A DNA stretch of 64,000 nt, from NCBI GenBank assembly GCA_035651195.1, contig DASRGD010000051.1:27476-91475 (forward strand). The letters are read 5' to 3'. This document shows positions 6,788 through 32,057 of the stretch, in pieces. Position numbers and translations under genes: made by a program. A model generated the notes under the pieces. That model was not told where the DNA came from, did no database searches, and saw only the letters and a list, made by a program, of their open reading frames with translations. The DNA comes from Gaiellaceae bacterium (lineage in GTDB: Bacteria; Actinomycetota; Thermoleophilia; Gaiellales; Gaiellaceae). The stretch's first letter is position 1. The number at the start of each line of letters is the position of its first letter.

Positions 6788-6791
6788 CCGG

Positions 6792-12217: not shown

Positions 12218-12301
12218 AGCCGCGCGCTTTGCGGCATGTCAAATCAGAATCGTGCACGATCGAGCATGACGTCGGCCACGGTGCGGTAGATTGAGGCACC
12301 C

Positions 12302-14794: not shown

Positions 14795-14901
14795 GCAGCC
14801 GCGCGCGACACGCGAGCACCGCCTTGGCATGCGACCCGCAGTGCCGCGACGTGGAATGATCGCGCAGACCGGCAAAACCAGACTGCTGAAAGGAAGCGAA
14901 C

Positions 14902-15591: not shown

Positions 15592-15743
15592 CGGCCGCGA
15601 CGATGATCGTCCGCCGCGCGCGCTCGGCGTGCTTTGCGTGGATAGACACGAGCGGTAGGCGTTATGCTGACGTCGCGGGATGGTGAGCCGGATCGGTGCC
15701 GCAGACGATCCGGCGTTCTTGAACAGCGTCCCGCGTTCCAGGT

Positions 15744-15773
15744 GATCGGCCTCGTCGCCCTACGAGGCCGATC
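15744..15773 (+). terminator. Perfect 12-bp stem / 6-nt loop hairpin (GATCGGCCTCGT-cgccct-ACGAGGCCGATC); possible terminator or 5' regulatory structure
   Basis: Read directly from the sequence. It lies about 150 nt downstream of the H1-like gene and about 80 nt upstream of the methyltransferase start. No U-tract follows. Confidence 0.3.
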
Positions 15774-15852
15774 CCGTTCCGGAGCGAGTCGTCCCCGGCG
15801 CGCTGGGTTGTACGATCTCCTCTCGCGACCCCGAGTCGAGCGTGCGCCGCCC

Positions 15853-16620: not shown

Positions 16621-16621
16621 G

Positions 16622-20197: not shown

Positions 20198-22912
20198 CTA
20201 CGGTCTCCGAACCGCTGCGAGAACGCGGCGGCCGGCGGCGAGCGGCAACTGCCACGCGTGGGCAAGTCCCCACCGCGCACGCAGATGCGCCGGCAGCGCC
20301 GCGGCGGTGCGAGCGAGCGAGGCGCCCGAGGTGGCGGCGAGGAGCGACGACAGCACCTCGGCCAGCGCGCCGTGCCCGGCGAGCCTCCCGGACGAGAATT
20401 CGAAGGCGAGGCGCTCGCGGCGCGTCGGCGTCCAGCGGCAGAGCCAGTCGTGGGCGACTCGAAGCCGTTCCGGCATCCGGAGCGGGAGACCGAGGAGCAC
20501 GTCGAACGCCTCTCTCAGCCGAAGGGCTTGCCCCCGCGTCACCGCCAGCTCGATCAGGCGGTCCCAGTCGACCTCCTGACCGCGCAGGATCATCACCGCG
20601 TCGACGAGCCACTGTGTCGGGGGCAGCGGCCCGTAGCGGGCGCCGGCGACGCAGACGGCAAGCAGCGCGTCTGTCGGCGTCGGCACCAGCACCCGTGTCC
20701 CGCCGACGCTGTAGCGCTGGGCGTCGCGCCAGAGCGGCGCCTCGGCCGGCTCGTCGTCGGGGCCGCGGAAGTCGAGCGCGAGCGACGAGCGCAGGATGCA
20801 CATGCTGCCGTTCTGGTCGAAGAGGACGCGCCAGCCGGGAAACGCGTCGCTCCCCGGCCCGGCCGCCCACCCCAGGCGCTCGAGCCGATTCGTCGCCTCG
20901 GCGACGTCGTTCCCGGCGAGGAGCACGTGGATCGACGACGTCGGGCGCAGGCCGAGGTCGCCGTAGAAGCGCGTTGCGAGCGTCGGGCCCTCGAGGAAGA
21001 GCGTCGCGATACCGGCGGCGCGAAGCGCGTCCGAGATCTCGCTCGTCTGCTCGAGCAGGAGGTTGTTCTTCACCCACGAGCGCCGGTAGATCCCCTTCAG
21101 CAGCGGCAGGCGCGGGTCGTCCTCGCCGGCGCCCGACAGGTTTCGGTACACGAGGGGCAGGAGCTCGAACGAGCCGGGCTCGAGGTCGGTGACCGAGAAG
21201 GTCTCCGGCAGGCGCCGCCAGATGTGCCGTGCGCCGGCCGCGTCCCCGAGCGCAACGGCGAACAGCTGCTCCTGGAGACGGGTCGGCCGGTAGCGGCCGA
21301 TGTCGCGGGTCGCGGCGGCTCGCCGCCCGTGGTCGCGGCCGAGCCTGTTCTCGAGCAGGGTCGGCAGCGGCCGCGCGAGCAGGGGGATCCGCTCCCGGAG
21401 CACGTCTCGCACCTCTGCGACGAGGGCGGGCGCGGCGACGACGAGGATCACCGCGTACAGCAGCAGCGCAGCCGCCCCGGCGAGGAAGAGCTGGGCGGCC
21501 GCGGGCGCGCCCGCGACCTCGAGGCCGTGGCGGACGCCCCAGGCTCCGGCCGCCGCGACCGCAGCGAGCGGCAGGATCGTTCCCCCGGCGAGCAGGGCCT
21601 CGCGGAAGCTGAAGCGCATGACGCGCGTGGTGACGTAGGTGTCGACGAGGACGAGCGGCCACTTGACGGCGGCGTAGGAGGCGGCGACGCCGACGGCGCC
21701 CCAGCGGACGCCGACCGCGAACGCCGCCAGGGTTACGGCCGTGACGAAGAAGTCGAGCCGGAGCGCGATCCCCACCCTCCCCGTCCCCTGCAGCACGGTC
21801 CAGTTCAGGGTGACGAGCGAGTGGGCGACCCCGGCGACCGCCAGCAGCTCGATCACCGGCACCGCCGCGTGCCACTTCTGGCCGAAGAGGACACGCACGA
21901 GATCGGGCGCCGTTACGGCGATGACCATGAAGGCCGGCGCGAGCAACGAGGCGGAAAGGCGCTTGCTGCGCAGCCACGCGCTGCGCATGCGCGGCACGTC
22001 GTCCTGCATGCGCGCGAGCGCCGGGTAGACCACGCCCGAGATCGGGTTCGCGATCCGGATCATCGGCGTGAACACGACGTTGTACGCGAGCGAGTAGGCC
22101 CCGAGCGCGGACGCGCCGGCGAAGCGGCCGACGAGCGCGTTGTCGACGTTGAGGTTCGCGTAGTTGAGCAGGCGGATGCCGAACAAGCGCGCGCCGAAGC
22201 TGCTCAGGTGGCGGAGGTGCGCGAGCGAGAACACGCGCCGCGGCCGCCACGACGAGAGACGCCAGAGCAGCAGCGTCGAAGCCGCCGACGCGACGAGCGA
22301 GTTGCCGATGATCGCCCACGGCCCGAAGCCGGCGAACGCGAGCGCGAGCGCGGCGACCCCACCGCAGAGGACGCCGGCGATCTCGCGGAGCTCGAGGCTG
22401 CGGTACGAGAGCCGACGCGTGAGCAGCGCGACCTGCGTCGTCGAGAGCGCGGCGAGCGGGAACGAGAACGAGAGACCGATCACGAGGTTGCGCACCTCGT
22501 GTCGTCCGAAGAAGTCCGCGACGAGCCCCGAGAGCGCGATCGAGACGCCCATCACGAAGACGCCGAACGCGAGCGAGGCCCAGAACACCGTCGACCGATC
22601 CTCCTCCGTGATCTCGCGCCGCTGCACGAGCGCGCCTCCGAGCGCAAGGTCCGAGAAGAGGGTCACGAGGCCGGAGAAGACGAACGCCATCCCGGCGACG
22701 CCGTAGTCTGCGGGTATCAGCAGGCGCGCGAGCACGATCGCGACGACGACGCGCGTCACCTCGGAGACGCCGATCGTGAGCGTCTTCCAGCCGAACCCGC
22801 TCAGCACGGCGGAGGTCATGCCGCCCGTGGCCTCGATCGAGCCCACCTCCTCGGCGGCGACCGGAGGCGCGCCGTCGGGAGGGTTCGAGGTCGCGTCGGT
22901 GCGGGCGGTCAA
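20198..22912 (-). CDS. Fusion protein: Wzx-type polysaccharide flippase (MOP superfamily) plus a C-terminal PF14907-like uncharacterised nucleotidyltransferase domain
   Basis: Single 904-aa ORF with no internal stop. Residues ~30-505 are multi-TM Wzx-like. Residues ~540-904 resemble the stand-alone ORF 26956..27993 (LLPLVYRNL, GIATLFLEGPTLATRFYGDLGLRPTSSIHVLL, then a helical tail). Confidence 0.7.
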   Translation of the reverse strand: MTARTDATSNPPDGAPPVAAEEVGSIEATGGMTSAVLSGFGWKTLTIGVSEVTRVVVAIVLARLLIPADYGVAGMAFVFSGLVTLFSDLALGGALVQRREITEEDRSTVFWASLAFGVFVMGVSIALSGLVADFFGRHEVRNLVIGLSFSFPLAALSTTQVALLTRRLSYRSLELREIAGVLCGGVAALALAFAGFGPWAIIGNSLVASAASTLLLWRLSSWRPRRVFSLAHLRHLSSFGARLFGIRLLNYANLNVDNALVGRFAGASALGAYSLAYNVVFTPMIRIANPISGVVYPALARMQDDVPRMRSAWLRSKRLSASLLAPAFMVIAVTAPDLVRVLFGQKWHAAVPVIELLAVAGVAHSLVTLNWTVLQGTGRVGIALRLDFFVTAVTLAAFAVGVRWGAVGVAASYAAVKWPLVLVDTYVTTRVMRFSFREALLAGGTILPLAAVAAAGAWGVRHGLEVAGAPAAAQLFLAGAAALLLYAVILVVAAPALVAEVRDVLRERIPLLARPLPTLLENRLGRDHGRRAAATRDIGRYRPTRLQEQLFAVALGDAAGARHIWRRLPETFSVTDLEPGSFELLPLVYRNLSGAGEDDPRLPLLKGIYRRSWVKNNLLLEQTSEISDALRAAGIATLFLEGPTLATRFYGDLGLRPTSSIHVLLAGNDVAEATNRLERLGWAAGPGSDAFPGWRVLFDQNGSMCILRSSLALDFRGPDDEPAEAPLWRDAQRYSVGGTRVLVPTPTDALLAVCVAGARYGPLPPTQWLVDAVMILRGQEVDWDRLIELAVTRGQALRLREAFDVLLGLPLRMPERLRVAHDWLCRWTPTRRERLAFEFSSGRLAGHGALAEVLSSLLAATSGASLARTAAALPAHLRARWGLAHAWQLPLAAGRRVLAAVRRP

Positions 22913-23013
22913 GCGCCGGCCCTTGCCCGCGACTCCCGCCCGCGCCGCGCCCGCATACCATCCGCAGGCCCATGCCCGGCAGGCGGTCCACCGGATTCGC
23001 TCGGTCGTCGTTC

Positions 23014-23835
23014 ATGCGCGCTCGTCACTTCGGCATCCGCGTCTCGCACCGGCTCGGAAGGATCGAGCCCCTGGGCGGGTCGCGGCCCGGGATCGCGATC
23101 ACGGGCGGCGGCGGGACGATCGGCCGGATCCTCCGCGACGGGCTGAGCGACGCGTATGCGATCCGGACGATCGACCTGATGCCCCTCGAAGGAGTCGACG
23201 TGGTCGCCGACACGCGCAACCTCGACCGGACGCAGGCCGCGTTCGCAGGCGCCGGGACCGTCGTCGACCTGGCGGCGGACGCGGGCGTGCGCACGCCCTG
23301 GGAGGACGTCCGCGAGAACAACCTCGCCGCCACGGTCGCCGCGCTGGAGGCGGCGCGCCGCGCCGGCGTCCGCCGTGTCGTCTTCGCGAGCACGAACCAC
23401 GTCACCGGCATGTACGAGCTGGACGAGCCGTACGCATCCGTCGTCGCCGGCCGCTACGACGGCCTCGATCCGGCCGCGCTGCCGCGGCTGCGGGCCGACT
23501 GGCCGATCAGGCCCGACAGCTTCTACGCCGTCGGCAAGGCCGCCGGCGAGGCGGCGGGTCGGTTCTACTCCGACGAGCACGGCCTCTCCGTCATCTGCCT
23601 CCGCATCGGCTCCGTGAGCGCGTCGAACCGTCCGCGTGACGTCCGCGAGTACGCGACGCTGCTCACGCACCGTGACCTCGTGCAGCTCGTCCTGCGGTGC
23701 ATCGAGGCGCCGGCCGACGTCCGCTTCGGCGTGTTCTACGGCGTCTCCGCGAACACGTGGCGCATCTGGGACATCGAGGACGCGCGGGCGACGCTCGGCT
23801 ACGAGCCGGTCGACGACGCGGAGCGCTTCCGCTGA
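23014..23835 (+). CDS. NAD-dependent epimerase/dehydratase-family protein (uronate-dehydrogenase-like layout)
   Basis: Rossmann motif ITGGGGTIGR, then FASTNHVTG and YAVGKAAGE (YxxxK). The C-terminal WDIEDARATLGYEPVDDAERF resembles Udh-type enzymes from memory. The start could also be 22972. Confidence 0.7.
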   Translation: MRARHFGIRVSHRLGRIEPLGGSRPGIAITGGGGTIGRILRDGLSDAYAIRTIDLMPLEGVDVVADTRNLDRTQAAFAGAGTVVDLAADAGVRTPWEDVRENNLAATVAALEAARRAGVRRVVFASTNHVTGMYELDEPYASVVAGRYDGLDPAALPRLRADWPIRPDSFYAVGKAAGEAAGRFYSDEHGLSVICLRIGSVSASNRPRDVREYATLLTHRDLVQLVLRCIEAPADVRFGVFYGVSANTWRIWDIEDARATLGYEPVDDAERFR

Positions 23836-23878: not shown

Positions 23879-24619
23879 TCAGGGCTGCGGCTCACGTCGA
23901 CCGAGCAACGCCGCCTCGGCGGCGGCGGAAGACGCCTGCGCTCGACGCCGGTCGAGTGCCGCTTTCAGAACGTGGAGGTATTGCTGCCGCGAGTCGCGTT
24001 CGCGCAGGCCGTTGTTCGCGAGGTGGAGCCGGCGTTCGAGCACGACCTCCGGCAGCATCGCGCTGCGCAGCCCCGCCTCGACCGCGCGCGCGTACCAGTC
24101 GACGGTGACACCGACCTTCACGTCCTCGGCGAAGGGGCCGACGCGGGCGAAGGACTCGCGCCTGATGAGCATCAGGTTCGGCGCCGTCCACGGAAGCGGC
24201 TGCGGCGCCGGCGGCCGCACGGTCGCCCGCTGCTCCTCGCTCAGCTCCGGGCTGACGAACTCGCGCACGTGCCCGAAGACCACGTCGAGCGCCGGATCCG
24301 ACTCCAGGGCCGCGAACTGCAACTCGAGCTTGTCGGCGACGAAGCGGTCGTCGGCGTCGAGGAAGGCGTAGAGCGCGCCCGAGGCGAGGCGCACGGCGTG
24401 GTTGCGCGCGGCGCCGTTGCCGGCGTTTTCCTGGTGGGCGAAGGTGAGCGCGTCGCCGTACGACCGGGCGACGTCGGCCGACCCGTCGTCGGAGCCGTCG
24501 TCGACGACGATCAGCTCGAGCGGCCGATAGCTCTGGGCGAGGACGCTGTCGATCGCCTCGCCGAGATACGGCGCCGCGTTGTAGACGCCGATCATGACGC
24601 TGATGAGCGGGCGGGTCAC
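23879..24619 (-). CDS. GT2-family glycosyltransferase
   Basis: Motifs ISVMIGVYNAAPYLGEAIDSVLAQSY, VVDDGSDDGS and LDADD. The GTG at 24617-24619 forms a GTGA overlap with the upstream stop. Confidence 0.85.
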   Translation of the reverse strand: MTRPLISVMIGVYNAAPYLGEAIDSVLAQSYRPLELIVVDDGSDDGSADVARSYGDALTFAHQENAGNGAARNHAVRLASGALYAFLDADDRFVADKLELQFAALESDPALDVVFGHVREFVSPELSEEQRATVRPPAPQPLPWTAPNLMLIRRESFARVGPFAEDVKVGVTVDWYARAVEAGLRSAMLPEVVLERRLHLANNGLRERDSRQQYLHVLKAALDRRRAQASSAAAEAALLGRREPQP

Positions 24620-25296
24620 GCCGCTCCCCCGCCGACTGCCCGCTCCCGCTCGAGCTTCTGGCGGAGCGAGCGAAGCAGCGGGCTCGTGGACGGTGGCGCG
24701 GCCGTCAGGTTGCGGCCGTGGAAGCGGCGGAAGAGGATGATCTCCGGGATCACCTCGATCCGGATGCCACGCTCGCGGAGCCTGAACAACAGGTCCATGT
24801 CCTCGCTGTGCGTGAATGACTCGTCGAAGCCGCCGACGGCTTCGAAGACGCGGCGCCTGATCATCGCCGAGAGGAGAGGGATGCCGTCGACGTCGCCGTA
24901 GACCGCGTCGCGCGCGAGCCACGGCGGCGGGTCGATCCACTCCTGCCGGCCGAGGACACAGCCGACCTCGGGATGCCCGACCAGGAAGCCTGCCTGCGCC
25001 GCCAGCCGCGTCGGCGGCCAGAGGTCGTCGGCGTCGAAGAACGCGAGCAGCTCTCCCTGAGAGGCCGCGACGGCAGCGTTTCGCGCGGCCGCCGCGCCGG
25101 CGTTCGACTGCCGGATCGTGCGCAGCTCCGGATGCGCCGCGAGGATCTCGGGCGTGCGATCGGTCGAGCCGTCGTCGCAGACCACGACCTCGAAAGGGTC
25201 GTAGTCCTGCGCGAGGATGCTCGCGATCGCGTCCTCGAGGAACTCCTCCGCCTGGAAGGCGGGCATGATCACGCTGACGAGCGGGCGGCTCTCCAC
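24616..25296 (-). CDS. GT2-family glycosyltransferase
   Basis: Motifs VSVIMPAFQAEEFLEDAIASILAQDY, VCDDGSTD and FDADD. GTG start 4 nt downstream of the HprK-like stop. Confidence 0.85.
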   Translation of the reverse strand: MESRPLVSVIMPAFQAEEFLEDAIASILAQDYDPFEVVVCDDGSTDRTPEILAAHPELRTIRQSNAGAAAARNAAVAASQGELLAFFDADDLWPPTRLAAQAGFLVGHPEVGCVLGRQEWIDPPPWLARDAVYGDVDGIPLLSAMIRRRVFEAVGGFDESFTHSEDMDLLFRLRERGIRIEVIPEIILFRRFHGRNLTAAPPSTSPLLRSLRQKLERERAVGGGAA

Positions 25297-25300
25297 GGCT

Positions 25301-26422
25301 TCAGGCGCCGGCGCCGACGGTGGCGATCAGGTCACGGATCGCGTGCGGGATCGAGGCGATGTCCGATCCGAGCTCGAGCACGTAGCTGGGGACGCGCTCG
25401 ACGAGGCGACGCACCCGGACGAGCGAGTCCTGCCCCCGCGTGTGCATCTGGAAGACGGTGCTCGGTGCGAGCGCCGTGAAGCCGGCCACCGGCGACGCCT
25501 CGAAGTACCTCGCCTCGACGAGACCGGGCGTGATGCGCGGCAGGACGACCGCGCGCAGCGGGAACCCTGCAGTGATCTTCGCCGGCCAGTGCTCGTTCAC
25601 GTACACGACCGCCTTCTCGATCGCGAGGTGGTCGCGGTTCGCCAAGGCGTCGAGCAGGAACGGCAGCCGCTCGACATGATTCTGCATCAGCTTGCCGGAG
25701 CCGTAGAGGCAGTGGACCTGCGGCTGCGTGTCGAGCGAGACGGCGATGTAGTCGTCGCCCGCGTAGAAGAGGTCGGCGTCCAGGCTCGAGAGCGCGGCCG
25801 TGGACTTGCCGGAGCCGCTCTTGCCGACGAGCACGACGCCGCCCTCGTCGGTGCCGACGGCGCCGGCATGGAGCATGTGCATGCCGCGCGCGCGCAGCCA
25901 CCAGTCGAGCAGGTAGACGAGCGGCGTCGCCTGTTCCCAGTACGGAATGCGGCGCGCGTCGGCGACCCAGTACCAGCCTCTGGCGTTGCTCGTCTCGAGC
26001 ACGCTCAGCGCCGGCGTCGGCGCGTTCGGGTAGACGGCGAGGACGCGGGCGTCTCCGCTCGTGCCGAGCTGGAAGCCGGCGCGGAGCTGGTGATTGCTGA
26101 AGTAGAAGAACGCGCCGGGCGCCTCCTCGTCCTCCGTGTTCGGGAGCGGCGGCGGCGACCCGCCCGACTCAGCGTCCCACAGGTTCACCGTCAGGTCCGG
26201 CTGCCCTGCCGGCTCGTCGAGCTCGAGATGCGCGAAGGCCCGGCCGAGCCGACGCAGCATCTCGGGGTGCGGGGAGCGGAGGCGCACCGTCGCGTCCGCG
26301 AGCCGGACGTCGCGCTCCTCGACGACCGACGCCGCGCGCACGGCGGCCTCGAAGCTCGCGGCGAGCGGCTCGAGCTCGCCGAAGCCGAGGTCGGCCGACC
26401 GGACCGCAGACGCCGCCGTCAC
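25301..26422 (-). CDS. HPr-kinase/phosphorylase-like P-loop protein (HprK-related kinase) with an unassigned N-terminal ~190 aa
   Basis: P-loop LVGKSGSGKST, followed by AGDDYIAV as in the HprK/P catalytic core. The GTG at 26420-26422 gives a GTGA overlap with the PqqD-like stop; an alternative GTG lies at 26455. Confidence 0.6.
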   Translation of the reverse strand: MTAASAVRSADLGFGELEPLAASFEAAVRAASVVEERDVRLADATVRLRSPHPEMLRRLGRAFAHLELDEPAGQPDLTVNLWDAESGGSPPPLPNTEDEEAPGAFFYFSNHQLRAGFQLGTSGDARVLAVYPNAPTPALSVLETSNARGWYWVADARRIPYWEQATPLVYLLDWWLRARGMHMLHAGAVGTDEGGVVLVGKSGSGKSTAALSSLDADLFYAGDDYIAVSLDTQPQVHCLYGSGKLMQNHVERLPFLLDALANRDHLAIEKAVVYVNEHWPAKITAGFPLRAVVLPRITPGLVEARYFEASPVAGFTALAPSTVFQMHTRGQDSLVRVRRLVERVPSYVLELGSDIASIPHAIRDLIATVGAGA

Positions 26423-26877
26423 GTCGTCGCGACGTCCGGGCGCGCATGCGGCCACCCGGCAGCGTCCACTTCGTGGACCGGATCGAGCAGGACGAGGTCC
26501 TGCATGTCCGTGTACTTCTCGAGCACGGGCGTCTCGAACGACCTCGCGCCGTCGGTCGCGGCCACGCCGTTCGCGACCGACGTGGAGGGCACGGCCTGGT
26601 CGACCTCGGCGACGAGCTCTTCTCGCCGCAGCTCCTCGAGGAACCGGCCGATCTCTCCCTCGACCGCATCGAGCGGGTTGTCGAAGCGACGAGCGACCGC
26701 TGCCGCGATCTCGTGCGCGTCGGCGCCCGGCGACGCCTGAACCACGTCCCAGATGTCCGCGCCGGCGCCCTTGACGCTGTAGTAGTTGCCCGTCGCGAGG
26801 TTGATGATGATGACCTCGCCGTCGATCGTCTCGTGAATCACTTGCGGGGCGTTCACCCGCAGACCCGATCTCTTCAT
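26419..26877 (-). CDS. PqqD-family (RiPP-recognition-element-like) protein with a ~60-aa C-terminal extension
   Basis: The block IHETIDGEVIIINLATGNYYSVKGAGADIWDVV...EIAAAVARRF...AVEGEIGRFLEELRREELV fits the PqqD winged-helix pattern. GGAGGA SD about 6 nt upstream of the ATG at 26875-26877. Confidence 0.6.
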   Translation of the reverse strand: MKRSGLRVNAPQVIHETIDGEVIIINLATGNYYSVKGAGADIWDVVQASPGADAHEIAAAVARRFDNPLDAVEGEIGRFLEELRREELVAEVDQAVPSTSVANGVAATDGARSFETPVLEKYTDMQDLVLLDPVHEVDAAGWPHARPDVATT

Positions 26878-26955
26878 CGCGCGCTCCTCCACCAACGGCC
26901 GGGAATATGGTCGAAAACGTACACTGCCCACTCCGGAGTCGTACTACTCAGGGGG

Positions 26956-27993
26956 GTGGTTTTCGCGACCGAGCTCTGGGCTGCGGTCGGCGCGCTGATC
27001 GATCGTGCCTCGGTGGACGGCGTCGTCGTGCACAAGCTCGCCCCCCTCGCCGCCGGCCGACGCCGCGCAGCCGGCGAGCCCGTACCCGAAGCGCTCGCCG
27101 CGGAGGAGCGCGCGGCGTCGTTCGCAGCCCTGAGCGCCACCGCGCTCCTCGGCCGCATCCGGGAGCTCGGCGAGGGGCCGATCGTGCTCCTCAAGGGCCC
27201 CGAGGTCGCCGCGCTCTACCCGCAGAACGGGCGTCGGTTCGGAGACGTCGACGTGCTCACGCCGGATGCGGCCGCGCTGCACCGGGCGCTCCGCGAGCAC
27301 GGGTTCGTCGACGTGGACACGAAGGGATTCGAGCCGCTCGAGCACCACCATCTGCCGCCGCTGCGCTGGCCGGTCGTGCCGCTCGTCGTCGAGGTCCACG
27401 CGTCGCCGAACTGGCCGCGCGGGATGCACGCGCCACCGCTCGCCGAGATCCTCGAGGCCGCGGTGCCGTCGATCGTCGGGGTGAAAGGGATCTCGGCGCC
27501 GCGCCCGCTCCACCATGCGCTTCTCCTCACCGCGCATGCATGGGCGCACGGGCCGTTGCAGACGCTGCGCGATCTGGTGGACGTGGCGGCTCTCGCCGCC
27601 GGCGAGGAGCGCGCCGAGCTCGACCGCCTCGCGGCGGCGTGGGGCATCCGTCGCGTCTGGCGGACGACGCGGCAAGCCGTGGACGCGCTCTTCGCCGGCG
27701 GCCCGCGCCCGGCGGCGCTGCGCATCTGGGCGCGCCACCTGAACGCGGTCCGCGAGCGAACGGTCTTCGAGAACCACCTCCAGGCGGCCCTGCACCCGTT
27801 CTGGGGGCGGCCGCTCGCGCCGGCGCTGCTCGAGTCGATGGCGGCGATTCGCACCGACCTCGTCCCCGCCCCCGGCGAGAGCTGGAAGACGAAGCTGCAA
27901 CGAATCCCGCGCGCGGTGCGCGAGGCCCGGATGCCGGTCAGCCAGCGGCCGCAGGCGACTGCGGAGGAGATTTCGTCAGGATCGACCGGATAA
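26956..27993 (+). CDS. PF14907-like uncharacterised nucleotidyltransferase family protein
   Basis: The block GPIVLLKGPEVAALYPQNGRRFGDVDVLTPDAAALHRALREHGF fits the nucleotidyltransferase GxxxDxD-type core. It resembles the C-terminal half of ORF 20198..22912. It is divergent from the PqqD-like gene (78-bp gap). The GTG 26956 start is tentative. Confidence 0.55.
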   Translation: MVFATELWAAVGALIDRASVDGVVVHKLAPLAAGRRRAAGEPVPEALAAEERAASFAALSATALLGRIRELGEGPIVLLKGPEVAALYPQNGRRFGDVDVLTPDAAALHRALREHGFVDVDTKGFEPLEHHHLPPLRWPVVPLVVEVHASPNWPRGMHAPPLAEILEAAVPSIVGVKGISAPRPLHHALLLTAHAWAHGPLQTLRDLVDVAALAAGEERAELDRLAAAWGIRRVWRTTRQAVDALFAGGPRPAALRIWARHLNAVRERTVFENHLQAALHPFWGRPLAPALLESMAAIRTDLVPAPGESWKTKLQRIPRAVREARMPVSQRPQATAEEISSGSTG

Positions 27994-28044: not shown

Positions 28045-29208
28045 GTGGCGAGATTCGCCCGAGCCGTCGTGCTGGGCGCGGTCGCGTTGCTGCTGCTCGC
28101 GGCGGCCGCCGGTGCACAGGGAACGGCCCACACCCTGGCCGGGACGGGCGTGCTCAGCCTCGGCGGCGGTCTCGCGACCGGGTCGAACCGAGCTTCGCTG
28201 CTGATGGTCTCGACCGCCAGCGCCTCGGCCGCCGCGCGCCAGAAGGGTCGGTCGCTCGTCTACTTCGCCGGGACCGACGTGAACACGGAGTGGAACACGG
28301 GCGTCCCGTACGCGGAAGCCGCGCGACACGGCTGGCTGCTGAAGGACGCCTCCGGCGACCTGCTCGTGAACAGCCGCTACCCGTCGAACTACGTCGGCGA
28401 CGTCGGCAACCCGCAGTACCAGCGGGCATGGCTGCGAAACGTGCTCGCGTTCCTTGCGCGGCACCACGACGACGGCGTCCTGATCGACGACGTGCTGTAC
28501 GACCTCGAGCCGCTCACCGAGACCGAGGCGTCGGCGTACCCGACGCAGCAGGCGTGGGCGGCGGCGCAGCTGTCGTTCATCCGCGCCGTCGGGCCGGCGC
28601 TCCGTTCCAGGGGGTACTACGTGCTCGTGAACGCGGCCGGCTACGTTCCGGGCGACGCTCGCAGCGACACCGGAGCGAACACCGCCACGTGGTGGCGCGA
28701 GCTCGCGCCGTACGTGAGCGGGTTCATGAACGAGTACTTCGCCGAGACTCCCGACGGCAACGGCACGCTCCGATCGACCGGCGGCTCGTGGAGCCAGAAC
28801 TGGGACGGGTGGCAACGGCTCGTACGCGTGGCGCAGTCGGTCGGCCGCGACTTCGTCGGCGTCACCTACGGAGACCCCGGGGACACCCGAGCGATGAGCT
28901 ACGCCAAGGCGTCGTTCCTGCTCGACTGGAACGGCGGCGGCGGTGCCTTCGTCTTCGACGCGACCGAGGGCCGGGACGCGTGGAACAGCGCCTGGACGCA
29001 GAACATCGGCCTGCCTCTGGACGCGAAGCGGCGCGTCGGCTCCGGCTGGCTTCGCCGGTACAGCGCGGGCCTCGTGCTGATCAACCCGTCGCCGACGAGC
29101 ACGCAGAGCTTTGTCCTGCCCGGCCGCTACGTGACCGCGGACGGCCAGGTCGTGACGTCGGCGACGCTGCCGCCGACCCAGGCGCTCATCCTTCAGGCTG
29201 CCGCGTGA
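28045..29208 (+). CDS. Secreted GHL15/GH114-like glycoside-hydrolase-like protein (paralog 2 of 3)
   Basis: Signal peptide MARFARAVVLGAVALLLLAAAAGAQG. It has the same conserved blocks as paralogs 1 and 3. Confidence 0.6.
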   Translation: MARFARAVVLGAVALLLLAAAAGAQGTAHTLAGTGVLSLGGGLATGSNRASLLMVSTASASAAARQKGRSLVYFAGTDVNTEWNTGVPYAEAARHGWLLKDASGDLLVNSRYPSNYVGDVGNPQYQRAWLRNVLAFLARHHDDGVLIDDVLYDLEPLTETEASAYPTQQAWAAAQLSFIRAVGPALRSRGYYVLVNAAGYVPGDARSDTGANTATWWRELAPYVSGFMNEYFAETPDGNGTLRSTGGSWSQNWDGWQRLVRVAQSVGRDFVGVTYGDPGDTRAMSYAKASFLLDWNGGGGAFVFDATEGRDAWNSAWTQNIGLPLDAKRRVGSGWLRRYSAGLVLINPSPTSTQSFVLPGRYVTADGQVVTSATLPPTQALILQAAA

Positions 29209-29770
29209 CGACAGGTCGAAGACGCTCCGCCGGCAACGGGGCGAGCGCGGCGGCGAGCGCGTGCGTGACGGCGTCGATCACCCGCGCGACCTCCGCGAAC
29301 ACCTGTCGCGACTCGCCGATCGGGTCGGCCAGGATGGCGCTGCCCCGTGGGCGGGCGTCCCGCAGCCGGCCGAGTTCGGCGATCACCTGACGGGCGTGCC
29401 GAGCGCCGGAGCCGCTCGGGACGGCTAGGCGGTCGAGCAGCTCGGGCAGCTCGAGGAGAAGGAAGACGCGCTCTGTGCGGGCTTGACCCACCTCGACGGC
29501 AGCAGCTGCGTGCGACGGCTCGAAGCCGATCACCAGGTCGTCGTCGACGAGTAGCCCTCGCCGAAGGGCGCGCGCGCGATGCGCGCTCAGGTCGACGCCG
29601 AGCGCAGCCGCGACCGCGATCGCATCCGGCAACGCCGGCATTCCCTCGACGTCGAGCGTGCCGTACGACGACACCGCGAGCGGCGCGCCGCCGAGATGCC
29701 GACGAAGGAGCGCAGCCGCGAGCGGGCTCCGGGCTCGGTTGCCGGTACAGACGAATGCGACCCGGAGCAG
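29186..29770 (-). CDS. Low-molecular-weight protein-tyrosine phosphatase (Wzb-like); start codon unresolved
   Basis: Hand translation upstream of the track ORF gives RRPLLRVAFVCTGNRARSPLAAALLRR (CX5R(S) P-loop), and a DP motif (ILADPIG) lies downstream. Only a CTG (29768-29770) lies in frame upstream of the P-loop. The first GTG (29674) lies after it. Confidence 0.65.
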   Translation of the reverse strand: MLRVAFVCTGNRARSPLAAALLRRHLGGAPLAVSSYGTLDVEGMPALPDAIAVAAALGVDLSAHRARALRRGLLVDDDLVIGFEPSHAAAAVEVGQARTERVFLLLELPELLDRLAVPSGSGARHARQVIAELGRLRDARPRGSAILADPIGESRQVFAEVARVIDAVTHALAAALAPLPAERLRPVVTRQPEG

Positions 29771-29777
29771 CGGGCGC

Positions 29778-30362
29778 CTACGAGTCCGACCGCGCGACGC
29801 CTCGGCGCAGGACGAACCCCAACGCGAAGAGCGCGAGGCCGGCGAGCACGAACTTGAGTAGCGAGAGCCCCGTGAACGGGAGCGTCGGCGCGCTCGGCGC
29901 CGGCGTCGGCTTGGGCGCCGCGGGCGTCTGCTTGGCCGCCACGTGCCTGGGCGCCGCGGCCACCGCCGGGACGCGCGGGGGCGGCGTCGTCTTCGGCGGC
30001 GTGAACGGCTTGGTCGGCGTGACGGAGGTCGGAGCGGGCGTCGTCGGCGCGGCCGCAGGCGGCGTCGCCGGAGCGAGCGTTGTCGGTAGCGGGCTCGTCG
30101 GAACGGGAGTCACCGCCGGCGTGATCGCGGGAGGCGGCGTCTCGGGAGGCGGCGTCAGCACCTGCTGCTGCAGGTACTGGTCGTCGGCCGCCGTGATCGG
30201 GGTGTCCGTCGCGGCCGCCCGCGCCTGCCCTGCGAACGCGGCGAACGCGACCGTCGTCAGCGCGGCGACCGCGAGCGTCGCAACCGCCGTCCGAGGTCTC
30301 CGCCGATCCTCGCGACCGCTGCGGCTGGTTGACGATGATTCATTCCGACGTACCCTAGGCAT
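29778..30362 (-). CDS. Pro/Thr/Ala-rich secreted protein with a C-terminal LPFTG sortase sorting signal
   Basis: This is the last 194 aa of track ORF 29778..31946. It has a signal peptide (...AVAALTTVAFAAFAGQARA), a low-complexity P/T/A stalk, LPFTG (29868-29882), a hydrophobic segment, and an RRGVARSDS tail. Confidence 0.75.
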   Translation of the reverse strand: MPRVRRNESSSTSRSGREDRRRPRTAVATLAVAALTTVAFAAFAGQARAAATDTPITAADDQYLQQQVLTPPPETPPPAITPAVTPVPTSPLPTTLAPATPPAAAPTTPAPTSVTPTKPFTPPKTTPPPRVPAVAAAPRHVAAKQTPAAPKPTPAPSAPTLPFTGLSLLKFVLAGLALFALGFVLRRGVARSDS

Positions 30363-30428: not shown

Positions 30429-32057
30429 GTGATCGACGCGCAGACCGAGGCGGGCGCGCAGCAGCGTGGGCTGACGGACTACCTGCGGATCCTGAGGCGT
30501 CGGAAGTGGTACGTCCTCGCGACCACGGTCCTGGTCGTCGCGCTCTCGGTCGCCTTCGCGCTCCGCCAGCCGAAGGAGTACCGAGCACGGTCGCAGGTGC
30601 TGCTGACGCGGAGCGACATCGCCGCGGTCGTCACGGGGGCACCGCAGGATCCGGCGCTGTCGGAGGATCCGGCCCGCTATGCACAGACGCAGGCGACGAT
30701 CGCTCGCAGCGGCGCGATCGCCGCGCTCGCGCTCAAGAACGCGCGCGTTTCCGACCTGACGCCGTCCGGGTTGCTCGGGGAGTCGTCGGTCACCCCGAGC
30801 GCGACGGCCGACGTGCTCGACTTCGTCGTCCACGATCGCGACCAGGCAAGGGCCGCTCAGCTCGTGAACGCGTACGCAGACGCGTTCGTCACCTACAAGC
30901 TCGGCCTCGACACGAACGCGCTGTTCCGCGCCCGGCAGCAACTGAACCAGCAGCTCACGAGGTTGCGCGCGCTCCGCCTCCAGGCGACGCCGCAGTATCG
31001 CGACCTCCTGAACAGCGAGCAGCAGCTGCACACGATGCAGCTCCTCCAGTCGCAGGACGCCGTCCTCACCCATCCAACCGCGGGTGTGCAGGTGAAGCCG
31101 ACGCCGAAGCGCGACGGGCTGCTGGGGCTCGGCTTCGGCCTCGTGCTCGGACTCGGGCTCGCGTTCGCGGCCGAGGCGCTCGACCGGCGCGTGCGCACCG
31201 AGGAGGAGGTCGAGCACGCGCTCGCGCTTCCGCTCCTCGGCCGCGTGCCCGCCCCACCGCGACAGCTGCGCGCGGGTGTCGCGATGCTCGACGAGCCGCG
31301 AGGCTCGTACGCCGAGGCGATCCGGCGGCTCGCGACGAGCATCGTCTTCTCGAACCCCGACCGGGACGCGGAGGTGCTGACGTTCACGAGCGCCCTGCAG
31401 CAGGAGGGGAAGTCGACGACGGTGGCCAATCTCGGCGTCGCGCTCGCCGCGAGCGGCAACGAGGTCGCGGTGGTCGACCTCGACCTTCGGCAGCCCGCGC
31501 TCGCGACGCTGTTCCACATCCATCGGCTGACCGGGCTCACGGACGTCGCAGTCGGCAGGACGCAGCTCGACGACGCGCTCGTCCGCGTCGAGCTGCCCGA
31601 CCTCGACCGCGGGCAACCCGGAGGCGACGCCGTGCAGGCGTCCTCGCCCGGAGCGCTGTACGTGTTGCCGACCGGGCCCCTGCCCGTGAACCCCGGCGAG
31701 TTCGTCGCGTCCGACGCCGTCGCCGCGCGCGTGCTCGTACCGCTCCGCCAGCGGTTCGACTACGTCCTCGTCGACACGCCGCCGATCTCCGTGGTCGGCG
31801 ACGCCGCGCGGCTGTCGGCCCGGACGGACGGGATCGTCGTCGTGTCGCGCCTCGGACTCGTGCACCGTTCCGCGCTCCACGACCTGAAGCGGCAACTCGC
31901 CGCGGCACCGGTGACCCCGCTCGGAGTCGTCGCCGCCGGCGTCCACGTTCCCTCCGTCGACGGCTACGCGCGTTACGCCGACCGCGGACAGCTCGCCGCA
32001 CGGTCACGGAACGGAAGGGGCGACAGGTCGCGCCTCTCGCGTCGCGTCCGCGCGTAG
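30429..32057 (+). CDS. Wzc-like chain-length determinant fused to a BY-kinase (Wzz domain + CpsD/CapB-type P-loop)
   Basis: Two TM segments flank a coiled periplasmic-type domain. Walker A is ALQQEGKSTT, A' is VVDLDLRQP and B is YVLVDTPP. GTG start. Confidence 0.85.
   Translation: MIDAQTEAGAQQRGLTDYLRILRRRKWYVLATTVLVVALSVAFALRQPKEYRARSQVLLTRSDIAAVVTGAPQDPALSEDPARYAQTQATIARSGAIAALALKNARVSDLTPSGLLGESSVTPSATADVLDFVVHDRDQARAAQLVNAYADAFVTYKLGLDTNALFRARQQLNQQLTRLRALRLQATPQYRDLLNSEQQLHTMQLLQSQDAVLTHPTAGVQVKPTPKRDGLLGLGFGLVLGLGLAFAAEALDRRVRTEEEVEHALALPLLGRVPAPPRQLRAGVAMLDEPRGSYAEAIRRLATSIVFSNPDRDAEVLTFTSALQQEGKSTTVANLGVALAASGNEVAVVDLDLRQPALATLFHIHRLTGLTDVAVGRTQLDDALVRVELPDLDRGQPGGDAVQASSPGALYVLPTGPLPVNPGEFVASDAVAARVLVPLRQRFDYVLVDTPPISVVGDAARLSARTDGIVVVSRLGLVHRSALHDLKRQLAAAPVTPLGVVAAGVHVPSVDGYARYADRGQLAARSRNGRGDRSRLSRRVRA

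Follow-up and report, generated by a model that had tools for sequence, protein, structure and literature searches.

A conserved, horizontally mobile cassette of an RRE-type PqqD protein, an HprK-like kinase and glycosyltransferases within a Gaiellaceae envelope-glycopolymer locus

The window analyzed here, a 64-kb stretch of Gaiellaceae DNA, holds a complete Wzx/Wzy/PGT locus in which genes for a PqqD-like protein, an HprK-like kinase and a PF14907 nucleotidyltransferase-fold protein stand next to two GT2 glycosyltransferase genes. This raises the question of what the five genes do together and on which substrate they act. The original prediction read them as a functional unit with RiPP kinship, and both of these points stood; its cis substrates, the membership of the HPr-rel-A system and the unassigned status of the kinase N-domain did not.

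Layout and conservation of the cassette

Re-reading of the sequence confirmed the coordinates of the five genes together with the GGAGGA ribosome-binding site, both GTGA overlaps and the 78 bp between the divergent genes, and GC3-based gene calling backed all five reading frames. On the minus strand, the gene of the PqqD protein, hereafter PqqD-ext (26419..26877), begins with an ATG at 26877, 7 nt downstream of the GGAGGA Shine-Dalgarno sequence (26885-26890), and its stop overlaps the start of the gene of the P-loop kinase (25301..26422, 373 aa) in a GTGA at 26419-26422. After a spacing of 4 nt follows the gene of GT2-1 (24616..25296; 226 aa, a soluble GT-A enzyme), which shares the second GTGA (24616-24619) with that of GT2-2 (23879..24619, 246 aa). 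The overlaps argue for translational coupling. The PF14907 protein (26956..27993, plus strand, 345 aa) is encoded divergently from PqqD-ext, across the 78-bp intergenic region (26878..26955) that holds the GGAGGA site. With regard to the predicted Pfam and TIGRFAM families, PF05402 for PqqD-ext (44.3 bits, cut-off 23.4), PF14907 (78.2 bits, cut-off 31.2) and PF00535 for GT2-1 and GT2-2 (108.8 and 100.2 bits, cut-off 23.3) scored above their cut-offs, whereas PF07475, TIGR04352 and TIGR04353 scored below.

Co-conservation was counted in the 29 loci that extend 4.5 kb or more beyond the PqqD gene on its downstream side. The kinase was present in all 29, at least two GT2 genes in 27 and PF14907 in 26. 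Directly 3' of PqqD-ext we found the kinase in 52 of 66 loci and PF14907 in nine more, and in most cassette maps the kinase is in turn followed directly by a GT2 gene, a position held here by GT2-1. Strong co-conservation, together with natural fusions of the kinase (kinase::GT2, GT2::kinase, kinase::PF14907 and epimerase::kinase, P0142), supports the view that the genes form one functional unit.

Hosts of the cassette include Gaiellaceae, cyanobacteria (with one copy on a plasmid of Crinalium) and one MAG each of Chlamydiae and Dyadobacter, and its gene order is common to the cyanobacterial, Chlamydiae and Dyadobacter MAGs and the Crinalium plasmid. The arrangement recurs in dozens of independent loci whose GC content ranges from 32 to 75%, which is far beyond chance. 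The suggested check for recurrence found the arrangement across phyla; the cassette also occurs without a surrounding polysaccharide locus. In the Chlamydiae MAG its neighbours on either side are ispG and uvrB, and neither there nor on the Crinalium plasmid, where an SMP-30/gluconolactonase is added, does a polysaccharide locus or a priming transferase surround it; the PGT of the window had relatives in only 3 of the 33 loci of at least 8 kb. Conserved and horizontally mobile, the cassette has these five genes as its core and is built here into a Wzx/Wzy envelope-glycopolymer locus. Its make-up is an RRE chaperone with a tethered tail, a kinase, two to four soluble GT2 enzymes and one or two PF14907 proteins, often joined by an SDR and by a Wzx or MsbA-type ABC exporter.

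PqqD-ext and its partners

In PqqD-ext (152 aa), the PqqD domain (aa 1-95, nt 26593-26877, minus strand) is followed by a linker, variable and disordered (aa 96-113), by the conserved tail of 30 aa, FETPVLEKYTDMQDLVLLDPVHEVDAAGWP (aa 114-143, nt 26449..26538, minus strand), and by a variable end of 9 aa. Its best NCBIfam match was NF033536 (lasso_PqqD_Bac), under the cut-off of that model. In the AlphaFold2 model, pLDDT values were above 90 at aa 11-90, below 50 at aa 100-109 and 90 at aa 111-120, and DSSP assigned a strand to residues 118-122 and a helix to residues 125-131. The best Foldseek match of the domain was TbiB1 with its leader (5v1v; TM 0.84, rmsd 1.6 Å, 27% identity). Judged by this predicted structure, the domain belongs to the RREs of the lasso-B1 type, in line with the proposed RiPP kinship of the unit.

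The extension of about 60 aa noticed in the original prediction was borne out by alignment of the tails, and it is what defines the family; 902 homologues were found, mostly of about 150 aa among the matches listed. The consensus of 80 unique tails, F-x-x-P-x-L-x-K-[YF]-[TS]-D-M-Q-D-L-L-L-L-D-P-[IV]-H-E-V-D-x-x-G-W-P, consists in order of a leader-like F-x-x-P-x-L, K-[YF]-[TS]-D-M with a short helix, and D-P-[IV]-H-E-V...G-W-P. The tail is kept from Gaiellaceae to cyanobacteria, the Chlamydiae MAG and the Dyadobacter MAG, and each locus scanned holds one copy of its motif. It opens with [FY]xxPx[LV], the motif recognized by the RREs of lasso peptides and of linear polyphosphorylated peptides (LPP; PMC13381572). 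The Thr/Ser at tail position 9 is present in 76 of the 80 tails and replaced by N, E or I in four; the Chlamydiae tail lacks a hydroxyl at both position 8 and position 9, although the kinase there is intact. Three tiny metagenome contigs carry stand-alone ORFs of 49-73 aa that have the tail motif but are not preceded by a PqqD domain; these may be fragments or chimeras, as the contigs are shorter than 1 kb and one has a coverage of about 1.4.

The kinase had been called HprK-like, and every named HprK-type model scored it below its own cut-off (PF07475, 16.1 bits, cut-off 33.3; TIGR04352, 32.1 bits, and TIGR04355, 28.0 bits, cut-offs 200). However, the core motifs HAGAVG (25853-25870), GKSGSGKST (25799-25825) and AGDDY (25748-25762) are kept across the family alignment, and the family profile matched the M. 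pneumoniae HPr kinase 1knx in the PDB (E 0.005) exactly over this core. Further, Foldseek of the AlphaFold2 model (pLDDT 89) matched both domains to ATP-PEPCK (E 7e-10, TM about 0.5) and also found the C-domains of HprK/P (E about 1e-5). Its intact catalytic motifs and its modelled two-domain PEPCK/HprK P-loop fold indicate that the kinase is HprK-like despite weak sequence scores. The N-domain, previously left unassigned, forms a PEPCK-like two-domain fold with the C-domain in this comparison. It is rich in aromatic residues (W150-Y151-W152, Y161-W162 and W174-W175), and nine aromatics are invariant in the family, whose profile gathers 2160 clusters at 50% identity (E<=1e-30).

Both glycosyltransferases carry a DADD motif, at 25024-25035 in GT2-1 and at 24347-24358 in GT2-2. 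The nearest solved relatives of GT2-1 are the GT-A domains of chondroitin and heparosan synthases, and GT2-2, as judged by comparing translations by eye, resembles the last cassette GT2 of loci L004, L006 and L007 in its FGH..F.SPEL and DWY.RA motifs. A frequent companion is an extended SDR/epimerase-family protein (22972..23835, plus strand, 287 aa; PF01370, 59.1 bits; NF041293, 160 bits with a cut-off of 400), homologues of which occur in 16-17 of the 33 loci of at least 8 kb. Among named families it comes closest to the NAD-dependent glucose-6-phosphate dehydrogenase Azf, with a score below the cut-off.

The PF14907 protein has an intact DxD in the alignment (GDVDVL, 27241-27258), and a PDB search with it returned no sequence relative. 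A second PF14907 domain, overlooked by the earlier reader, is fused to a Wzx/MOP flippase (20198..22912, minus strand; flippase at aa 1 to about 520, PF13440 267 bits; PF14907 domain at about nt 20201-21313, minus strand, 81.8 bits). It is probably non-catalytic, since the DxD position reads SSIHVL (20921-20938). The identical fusion is found in locus L010, and in relatives PF14907 genes adjoin Wzx or ABC exporter genes. Exporters among the loci were Wzx in nine, MsbA/PglK-type ABC in seven and Amj in one; from the coordinates, a PF14907 gene adjoins or is fused to the exporter in 6/6 ABC loci and 6/9 Wzx loci.

Relation to known peptide-modifying systems

Among known systems the cassette stands closest, as a relative, to the sets of RRE, HprK-like kinase and NTP-transferase that belong to paeninodin-type lasso peptides and LPP peptides; PsmN and LppN are placed in PF14907 here from their published description as an 'uncharacterized NTP transferase' only. 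With the paeninodin/pseudomycoidin systems (PadeK/ThcoK/PsmK plus PsmN; PMC6993621) it shares an HprK-like kinase and an NTP-transferase-fold enzyme with a catalytic DxD beside a PqqD-type RRE. The chemistry of these systems consists of phosphorylation of a Ser followed by addition of hexose to the phosphate: PsmK modifies the C-terminal Ser of pseudomycoidin, and PsmN is then required for additions of +162 and +324 Da, its DxD mutant being inactive (PMC6993621). The cassette differs in that no macrolactam cyclase, B2 protease or precursor was found, and in its dedicated GT2 enzymes, whereas for pseudomycoidin the hexoses were proposed to come from host enzymes or from PsmN itself (PMC6993621).

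The LPP clusters of Bacillota (LppA/B/K/N/S/D; PMC13381572) resemble the cassette in their recognition motif, [Y/F]xxPx[V/L], and in being frequently placed in capsule or EPS loci. Sets of RRE, HprK-like kinase and NTP-transferase inside such loci were reported for Bacilli in 2026 (PMC13381572), so that the novelty of a peptide-modification set within an EPS locus is smaller than had been assumed. LPP clusters encode an SpI-like leader peptidase and separate precursors of 35-200 aa that carry their leader at the N-terminus (PMC13381572), whereas neither was found in the cassette, in which the leader-like motif is fused via a linker to the C-terminus of the RRE. The cassette has at least two GT2 genes, and often an SDR, as fixed members; its exporter can be a Wzx fused to a DxD-less PF14907 domain, and its hosts belong to Actinomycetota, Cyanobacteriota and, with one MAG each, Chlamydiae and Bacteroidota rather than to Bacilli.

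The lasso B1 RRE of the TbiB1-TbiA pair (5v1v/5v1u) has the winged-helix fold matched by PqqD-ext and reads its leader via Y-x-x-P-x-L, bound as an added beta strand; the PqqD-ext tail has a like motif. In PqqD-ext, however, the leader-like strand lies on the polypeptide of the RRE itself, about 20 residues downstream, and is followed by an invariant DP[IV]HEV...GWP with no lasso counterpart. The HPr-rel-A system likewise pairs an HprK-related kinase (TIGR04352, kinase A) with a PqqD-family chaperone (TIGR04353), and it also includes PF14907. Membership of this system, as originally suggested, did not hold: the kinase reached 32 bits with a cut-off of 200 and PqqD-ext 24.3 with a cut-off of 35, while the cassette kinases of three other loci gave 24-29 bits in the same kinase test. 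In addition, the TIGR04353 model covers 74 positions and no tail, as opposed to the approximately 150 aa and conserved tail of the PqqD-ext family. As for the kinase, its P-loop and GDD catalytic core are shared with HprK/P and its two-domain architecture with ATP-PEPCK, but identity to either is 11-16%, neither HPr nor a PTS context accompanies it, and clusters of invariant Trp and Tyr specific to the family mark its N-domain.

Overall, the cassette looks like peptide-modifying machinery minus the separate peptide; its chaperone has a leader-like peptide as a fused part, and the whole is tied to enzymes that add sugars and to exporters.

Possible substrates and competing readings

The two cis substrates put forward originally fared poorly. 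Relatives of GHL15 were found in only 3 of the 33 loci of at least 8 kb, the window included, and the same count was obtained for relatives of sortase, taken in place of the LPFTG protein itself; the cassette occurs without either in cyanobacteria, the Chlamydiae and Dyadobacter MAGs and the Crinalium plasmid. In agreement with the original prediction, no separate precursor, lasso cyclase or leader peptidase of the SpI or B2 type came to light; for the enzymes, this covers the scanned window genes (all called genes but eight) and the self-contained loci. No small ORF was conserved in the 34 loci of at least 6 kb, no locus had a second copy of the tail motif, and the 64-kb window held no LPP- or lasso-like leader.

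The reading to which we tentatively lean, with considerable doubt, is that PqqD-ext is self-loaded and is itself the substrate. Its F-x-x-P-x-L would dock as a beta strand in the peptide groove of its own RRE, a cis docking that we infer from single-chain AlphaFold2 confidence and secondary structure only. Once loaded, the RRE would bring in the kinase, which is translationally coupled to it, in the way that leader-bound RREs of RiPP pathways recruit enzymes. The kinase would then phosphorylate a hydroxyl on PqqD-ext, the best candidate being the N-cap Thr/Ser of the tail helix in K-[YF]-[TS]-D-M. By analogy with PsmK and PsmN on pseudomycoidin, the DxD-intact PF14907 protein and the GT2 enzymes might then build a phosphate-linked glycan, and the exporter-linked PF14907 paralogue, fused here to Wzx and without DxD, could couple the product to export. 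Several observations speak against self-modification. LppK, which polyphosphorylates Ser3 of the LPP core, is strictly Ser-specific (PMC13381572), while Thr dominates at the candidate position, which is moreover not invariant (4/80 tails, and the Chlamydiae tail). Thirty residues so conserved resemble a binding element more than a substrate core, and no protease was found that could free a peptide. Wzx and Amj flip lipid-linked glycans, not proteins or peptides, and the PEPCK-like cleft and aromatic-rich N-domain of the kinase would suit a sugar too.

Rather unlikely, though to be taken seriously, is a glycan-directed module with a 'fossil leader', in which a sugar or lipid-linked oligosaccharide would be the target of kinase, PF14907 and GT2 enzymes, which would place phosphate, then a phosphodiester-linked or extra glycosyl branch, on an envelope polymer before flipping. 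PqqD-ext would be a non-catalytic subunit whose permanently self-occupied groove keeps RiPP-derived enzymes leader-bound and active. The regular GT2 genes (27/29 loci) and frequent SDR fit this well, as do the Wzx, MsbA/PglK-type ABC and Amj exporters with adjoining or fused PF14907, the kinase fusions to GT2 and epimerase, the small-molecule cleft with nine invariant aromatics, the interaction-motif-like conservation of a tail whose Thr/Ser varies, and the complete Wzx/Wzy/PGT locus of the window. Yet all characterized HprK-family kinases act on protein or peptide (HPr, paeninodin, pseudomycoidin, LPP), an RRE in a glycan pathway has no precedent, and for cassettes such as those of the Chlamydiae MAG and the Crinalium plasmid, as well as the many loci without PGT relatives, the acceptor would have to come from elsewhere. 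A regulatory switch is improbable: kinase and PqqD-ext would form an HprK/HPr-like pair, with metabolite-dependent phosphorylation toggling glycosyltransferases or exporter and yielding no product. The HprK core and fold agree with it, and the candidate Thr/Ser sits at a predicted helix N-cap, as does Ser46 of HPr; the window already has a phospho-regulatory pair in Wzz/BY-kinase (30429-32057) and LMW-PTP (29186-29674). But co-transfer with a fixed GT2, PF14907 and SDR set across phyla and on a plasmid would be unexpected, as would fusion to catalytic GT2 or PF14907 domains, and the acceptor is not invariant and no phosphatase or phosphorylase partner is conserved.

Very improbable, the lowest of all in our estimate, is a private nucleotide-sugar pathway in which a sugar phosphate from the kinase would be turned by PF14907 into an NDP-sugar, modified by the SDR and consumed by the GT2 enzymes, with PqqD-ext as an accessory. 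The order of kinase, nucleotidyltransferase, SDR and glycosyltransferase follows classical sugar-activation logic, with the glucose-6-phosphate dehydrogenase as nearest named family of the SDR and the Crinalium gluconolactonase in keeping. To our knowledge, though, neither the kinase nor the PF14907 fold is usual for anomeric sugar kinases or sugar-1-phosphate nucleotidyltransferases; the RRE and tail, the most conserved element, would be left without a role, and one of the two PF14907 copies is flippase-fused and without catalytic DxD. An ordinary LPP/paeninodin-type cluster, as improbable as the switch, would have its precursor encoded elsewhere, or too small or divergent, and the PqqD tail as an auto-inhibitory plug displaced by the real leader. 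RRE, HprK-like kinase, NTP-transferase and MsbA-type pump are indeed the LPP core set (PMC13381572), and the stand-alone tail-motif ORFs would agree; these lie on the doubtful short contigs described above, and the searches for small ORFs, second motif copies, leaders, peptidases and cyclases all count against it. The window also contains an AsnB-type gene (42671-44617), overlooked by the earlier reader; considered as a lasso cyclase, it was rejected, being a genuine TIGR01536 asparagine-synthase-type amidotransferase.

Gene content and recurrence of the cassette

The gene for PqqD-ext, an extended PqqD-like protein of 152 aa, lies at 26419–26877 on the minus strand of the window (G+C content of 72%), with a GGAGGA Shine-Dalgarno sequence 7 nt upstream of its ATG; its product is 100% identical to P0270, a protein named from a Gaiellaceae MAG. 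The kinase gene (25301–26422, minus strand) shares a GTGA stop/start overlap with it and is followed after a 4-nt gap by a first GT2 gene (24616–25296, minus strand), which in turn shares a second GTGA overlap with another GT2 gene (23879–24619, minus strand). The PF14907 gene (26956–27993, plus strand) diverges from the PqqD-like gene across 78 bp. All of these coordinates and signals were borne out, as originally predicted, by an ORF listing, by gene calling from GC3 and by inspection of the sequence itself. In line with the family assignments made there, PqqD-ext passed the gathering score of PF05402 (44.3 bits vs. a cut-off of 23.4), the product of 26956–27993 matched PF14907 (NTP_transf_5) with 78.2 bits vs. 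31.2, and both glycosyltransferases scored above the Pfam cut-off for GT2. The PDB matches of the GT2 proteins were generic GT-A glycan synthases that do not indicate the acceptor, a PDB sequence search for PF14907 gave no match, and Rfam and tRNA scans of the window returned no matches.

Kinase homologues with 51–68% identity were found behind a PqqD gene and before GT2 genes, in the neighbourhood of PF14907 and a Polysacc_synt flippase (relative loci L001–L003). Distant homologues (28–38% identity) from four MAGs (two cyanobacterial, one of Chlamydiae and one of Dyadobacter) keep the order PqqD (~150–160 aa), kinase, two to three GT2 genes and PF14907, although PF14907 was undetected in the cyanobacterial locus L005; at least four loci, the most informative distant ones, were confirmed by scanning genome contigs with the kinase alignment. 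The six cassette genes of the Chlamydiae MAG are bounded by ispG and uvrB, with other polysaccharide genes absent, and therefore the cassette can exist on its own.

With the PqqD alignment as seed, a scan of metagenomes returned 442 related stretches, from which 80 loci were kept, and home-made HMMs of the four families were mapped onto all loci. The gene next after PqqD was the kinase in 52 and PF14907 in 9 of the 66 loci with at least 500 bp downstream. Where at least 4.5 kb followed PqqD, the kinase was present in 29/29 loci, at least two GT2 genes in 27/29 and PF14907 in 26/29. Locus GC content spans 32–75%. Natural fusions were also detected (epimerase::kinase, P0142; GT2::kinase, P0149; kinase::GT2, P0168; kinase::PF14907, P0213), independent of the kinase::GT2 fusion P0102 of L002, which a misassembly may have created, as PqqD on the same contig appears split over two frames. 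The recurrence of the arrangement in relatives was thus confirmed by the mapped HMMs and the co-conservation counts, and the view of the five genes as one module by their co-conservation and by the joining of parts in natural fusions; the link to glycosylation is fixed in both the gene content and the fusions. In L048, a second kinase gene and three GT2 genes (13977–17181, minus strand) lie on the strand opposite to the PqqD-kinase-PF14907 set, and a second PqqD match was not detected in the fetched region; two kinase genes are also present in L027.

The companion genes were counted in 33 loci of at least 8 kb, both by targeted searches and by clustering all other ORFs without preselection. 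An SDR/epimerase like that at 22972–23835 in the window occurred in 16–17 of the 33, the closest named family being glucose-6-phosphate dehydrogenase Azf, with a score below cut-off. The cassette is also carried by a cultured organism, Crinalium epipsammum PCC 9333, on the mobilizable 44-kb plasmid pCRI9333.04 (locus L088), as genes CRI9333_RS23855–RS23905 in the annotated order PqqD family protein, nucleotidyltransferase family protein, HPr kinase, FkbM methyltransferase, GT-A, NAD(P) oxidoreductase, GT-A, SMP-30, TPR protein, nucleotidyltransferase and ABC transporter. The extra genes of L088 for an FkbM methyltransferase and an SMP-30/gluconolactonase (8582–9298 and 11854–12810), together with the Azf-like SDR, hint that some cassettes may perform aldonate chemistry or an oxidation at C1 of a sugar.

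A Wzx flippase was found in 9/33 loci and an MsbA-type ABC exporter in 7/33, the two sets being without overlap, and an Amj flippase lies directly downstream in the Dyadobacter locus (Pfam E 5e-73). As read by eye from the coordinates, a PF14907 gene adjoins the ABC exporter gene in 6/6 ABC loci and adjoins, or is fused to, Wzx in 6/9 Wzx loci. The window holds such a Wzx-PF14907 fusion at 20198–22912 (minus strand), with a C-terminal PF14907 domain at ~20201–21313 (81.8 bits vs. 31.2), and a C-terminal fusion of the same kind is found in L010. In an alignment of 59 PF14907 sequences, the DxD pair is kept in most, as GDVDVL in the product of 26956–27993, while it is lost in the Wzx-fused and several Wzx-adjacent copies, which read SSIHVL in the window (20921–20938) and SAVH, SFVH or SFLS elsewhere. 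The degenerate motifs of Wzx-adjacent copies were seen in L001, L017 and L021, and ABC-adjacent paralogues retain DxD. Since the DxD is gone from the flippase-fused copy, and DxD mutants of the pseudomycoidin NTP transferase PsmN are inactive (the D134/D136 pair is required, PMC6993621), this copy is, by analogy, probably non-catalytic.

The kinase and the tail of PqqD-ext

The identity of the kinase as an HprK relative stood with respect to its catalytic core and fold and failed with respect to HMM scores. The window kinase reached 16.1 bits vs. 33.3 with PF07475 and was not listed by TIGR00679 at E ≤ 0.01, a model with which three cassette kinases of other loci scored 16–26 bits vs. 240. Nevertheless, the core HAGAVG...GKSGSGKST...AGDDY is invariant in an alignment of 30 kinases, so that the H-x-G...G-x-S-G-x-G-K-S...G-D-D signature of HprK is present together with the P-loop C-domain fold, and the profile of the kinase alignment matches the Mycoplasma pneumoniae HPr kinase 1knx exactly over this core (E 0.005). 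Numerous Trp and Tyr positions of the N-terminal half are likewise invariant in this alignment. The best fold matches of the AlphaFold2 model (pLDDT 89, pTM 0.87) were ATP-dependent PEP carboxykinases, over both domains (E ~1e-9, TM ~0.5), and the HprK/P C-domains 1kkl and 3tqf also matched (~E 1e-5, Foldseek). Because of these matches, the N-domain, previously regarded as unassigned, is predicted to form with the P-loop domain a two-domain kinase of the PEPCK/HprK type.

Searched with a profile of the family, 1.84 billion representative proteins yielded 6796 kinase matches, 2160 of them at E ≤ 1e-30 (2160 clusters at 50% identity); among the matches listed, most were full-length, with ~350–370 aa. 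No NCBIfam model claims this family, all scores being below the cut-offs. Membership of the HPr-rel-A neighbourhood, which had been proposed, was rejected, as both TIGR04352 (32.1 vs. 200) and TIGR04353 (24.3 vs. 35) remained below their equivalog cut-offs, and so was membership of TIGR04355 (28 bits for the window kinase) and ScmC, with scores far below the cut-offs. A literature search on PF14907, HPr-rel-A and TIGR04352 retrieved nothing beyond a brief mention in a survey of phosphonates. One kinase homologue, P0053, has a precomputed match to Pfam PF27840.1, which the Pfam copy used here did not report; this very recent family may already include the cassette kinase.

A search for PqqD-ext homologues gave 902 proteins, mostly of ~150 aa among the matches listed. 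Their alignment comprises an RRE (aa 1–95), a variable linker of ~18–25 residues, a block of 30 residues and, at the end, a variable stretch of 3–14 residues. The extension beyond the usual PqqD domain was therefore found to be real, and it holds the family-defining block, referred to here as the tail (26449–26538 in the window). The consensus of 80 unique tails is F-E-[AP]-P-x-L-[EH]-K-[YF]-[TS]-D-M-Q-[DE]-L-[LVI]-L-L-D-P-[IV]-H-E-V-D-x-x-G-W-P. Position 9 is Thr or Ser in 76 of them, and the four that lack a hydroxyl there include the Chlamydiae tail. Each locus contains exactly one copy of the motif, a regex search for a second copy in the loci being negative. The DP[IV]HEV..GWP tail can serve as an annotation signature for proteins that are now just called 'PqqD family protein', 'HPr kinase' and 'nucleotidyltransferase family protein'.

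In the AlphaFold2 model, PqqD-ext has a winged-helix RRE fold, whose best match is TbiB1 crystallised with its leader (5v1v/5v1u; TM 0.84, rmsd 1.6 Å, 27% identity), and its best NCBIfam match is the lasso PqqD chaperone model, below cut-off. The start of the tail has the same spacing as [Y/W]xxPx[L/V/I/F/A], the motif recognised by the RREs of lasso peptides and linear polyphosphorylated peptides (LPPs) (PMC13381572). In the single-chain model the linker is disordered (pLDDT < 50), residues 111–120 reach a pLDDT of 90, DSSP assigns a β strand to 118–122 and a helix to 125–131, and the DP[IV]HEV...GWP segment has low confidence. Contacts of the tail with the groove and with the kinase were deduced from these confidence values and the secondary structure. 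The built-in leader is read as docking in cis into the RRE groove, the presumed pairing partner of the strand, and the distal invariant part of the tail as being left free for a partner.

A homologue search with the 46-aa tail alone retrieved six short proteins from contigs of less than 1 kb, two of which are C-terminal fragments of PqqD-ext. Three of the six are stand-alone ORFs of 49–73 aa with the full tail motif, e.g., MAEDTIGPFVPPTLEKYTDMQDLVLLDPVHEVDERGWPHAQAAAQSDDN, in L089 (426–575), L090 (640–861) and L091 (370–573), metagenome contigs of less than 1 kb in which a PqqD domain is absent upstream; these ORFs may be either artefacts of assembly or free peptides resembling precursors. The D-P-[IV]-H element has its invariant Asp 18 residues after the tail Phe, and the phosphorylated Ser of LPPs is likewise 18 residues after the Tyr of YxxP, which may be a coincidence or reflect a phosphomimetic position.

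Kinship with RiPP systems and the possible acceptor

Sets of an RRE, an HprK-like kinase and an NTP transferase have been recognised only recently, in pseudomycoidin in 2019 and LPPs in 2026. The HprK-like PsmK phosphorylates the C-terminal Ser of pseudomycoidin, after which PsmN, an 'uncharacterized NTP transferase', is required for the addition of one to two hexoses to the phosphate (PMC6993621). The LPP set consists of the discrete RRE LppB, the HprK-like kinase LppK and the NTP transferase LppN, along with a peptidase of the SpI-like type and a pump resembling MsbA; its precursors carry a YxxPxVLxHQxIxFETxxS leader, LppK adds up to four phosphates to core Ser3, and LppN was inactive in a heterologous host (PMC13381572). 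LPP and paeninodin clusters are often found in capsular polysaccharide loci, with roles that the authors describe as unknown (PMC13381572).

The cassette, with LppK and LppN compared by description, has the same co-conserved trio, the recognition motif and the polysaccharide context in common with these systems. Its predicted kinship with RiPP machinery was accordingly supported by the lasso-B1-like RRE fold, the leader-like motif and the trio itself. In contrast to LPP and pseudomycoidin clusters, it has neither a separate precursor nor a peptidase, its RRE and leader-like peptide share one polypeptide, GT2 genes are obligatory and an SDR gene is usual, its exporters include Wzx or Amj, and it is hosted by organisms other than Bacillota. 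The 442 related loci of the metagenome scan make it a widespread non-Bacillota relative of the trio sets, and one in which leader and RRE are joined in nature, the leader being built into the chaperone. Overall, the original prediction held with regard to the module and its RiPP ancestry, but not for the substrates proposed or HPr-rel-A membership.

The RiPP functions that had been noted as missing were indeed not found. The sole AsnB homologue of the window (42671–44617, plus strand) passed TIGR01536 (516 vs. 267) and failed the lasso cyclase model NF033535 (241 vs. 525), which rules out a cyclase and identifies it as a genuine TIGR01536 glutamine amidotransferase; it is also similar to TIGR03108, the amidotransferase model of XrtA/PEP-CTERM systems (433 bits, below cut-off). 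Pfam families of B2 or SpI-type peptidases were absent from the 49 window genes scanned (eight called genes were left out), and an SpI-like peptidase was not found in the ORF lists and annotation of the cassettes of L004, L006, L007 and L088. Regex searches of the window for the lasso precursor YxxPxLx3Gx5T and the LPP leader were negative, and all-against-all clustering of ORFs of at least 35 aa from 34 loci gave no conserved small precursor ORF, the recurrent short clusters being judged, from their sequences, to be shadow ORFs of high-GC DNA.

The explanation that we favor, albeit tentatively, is that a phosphate-linked glycan is built on the polypeptide of PqqD-ext itself and then exported. 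The self-loaded RRE would recruit the translationally coupled kinase, which would phosphorylate a hydroxyl of this polypeptide; the DxD-intact PF14907 protein and the GT2 enzymes would build the phosphate-linked glycan, and the exporter-linked PF14907 paralogue would couple the product to export. The tail is favored as the kinase acceptor because the characterised relatives all act on a peptide with an RRE-bound leader and the tail is the only such peptide, and the frequency of Thr or Ser at its position 9 supports this view. Against the self-substrate model, however, stand the four tails without that hydroxyl, Chlamydiae included, and the finding that LppK does not accept Thr (PMC13381572); further, the conservation of the tail resembles that of a binding motif, the protease is absent, and Wzx and Amj transport lipid-linked glycans. 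The main alternative, which we consider somewhat unlikely, is that the enzymes act on a sugar or lipid-linked glycan, with PqqD-ext as a scaffold retaining a 'fossil' leader.

A more far-reaching version of the self-substrate model, in which the RRE protein is both acceptor and carrier, appears improbable. Here, the tethered peptide would be phosphorylated, possibly more than once in the manner of LppK, the glycan would be assembled on the phosphate by PF14907 and GT2 enzymes, and the DxD-less PF14907 would hand it to Wzx/ABC export. If true, the protein-(pyro)phosphate-linked oligosaccharide would be a soluble, protein-borne analogue of undecaprenyl-pyrophosphate-linked intermediates, envelope glycans would be primed without a phosphoglycosyl transferase, and a RiPP-like system would have chaperone and substrate in one polypeptide. 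An ordinary RiPP cluster with a remote precursor is very unlikely. We would give just as little credence to a regulatory switch of the HprK/HPr kind, with the HprK core of the kinase on one side and the co-conserved GT2 genes on the other. A private NDP-sugar pathway, with the nucleotidyltransferase and SDR genes on its side and the RRE and leader-like tail on the other, is the least probable of all. The cassette points to a possible new way to decorate or prime cell-envelope glycans, and it offers a compact system of 6–8 genes, also on the plasmid of the cultured Crinalium, for kinase/PF14907 chemistry.

The glycopolymer locus around the cassette

The predicted embedding of the cassette in a Wzx/Wzy glycopolymer locus (~16.6–52.3 kb) was corroborated by the presence of genes for the flippase (20198–22912), polymerase (two Wzy_C genes, 32066–34000 and 50257–51669), priming transferase (Bac_transf, 34314–35699) and a chain-length/BY-kinase protein (Wzz/P-loop, 30429–32057). 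Relatives of the priming transferase, Wzy, sortase and GHL15 of the window were each found in 3/33 loci, the window included, and hence these genes are attributed to a Gaiellaceae-type host locus and not to the cassette.

The LPFTG protein and a GHL15 tail, proposed as substrates encoded in cis, remained unsupported, and the LPFTG protein, sortase and GHL15 were rejected as cassette partners or substrates on the basis of the same counts for sortase and GHL15 relatives. The glycopolymer locus contains three dispersed GHL15 (PF14885) paralogues (17517–18629, minus strand; 28045–29208, plus strand; 40824–42302, minus strand), and relatives also occur in L003 and L010, but GHL15 does not belong to the cassette elsewhere. 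The sortase gene (18892–19626, plus strand) has relatives in L002 and L010. The Pro/Thr-rich protein (29778–30362, minus strand) has a signal peptide, an LPFTG motif (29868–29882), a TM helix and a basic tail, and looks like the partner of the sortase in a sortase-substrate pair within the locus. Its gene is flanked by those of a low-molecular-weight phosphotyrosine phosphatase (29186–29674, minus strand) and the BY-kinase-type Wzz/P-loop protein (plus strand), which are a second, classical phospho-regulatory pair of the window locus.

The left flank of the window (1–12217) is unrelated and encodes an Opp/Dpp-type peptide ABC importer (3962–9495), an M29 peptidase, a ribulose-phosphate 3-epimerase and an IF-2B-family protein. 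A short distance upstream of the glycopolymer genes, 14902–15591 (plus strand) encodes a protein with a Lys/Ala/Thr-rich repetitive C-terminal half and a weak HC2 histone-H1-like match (37 bits, below cut-off).
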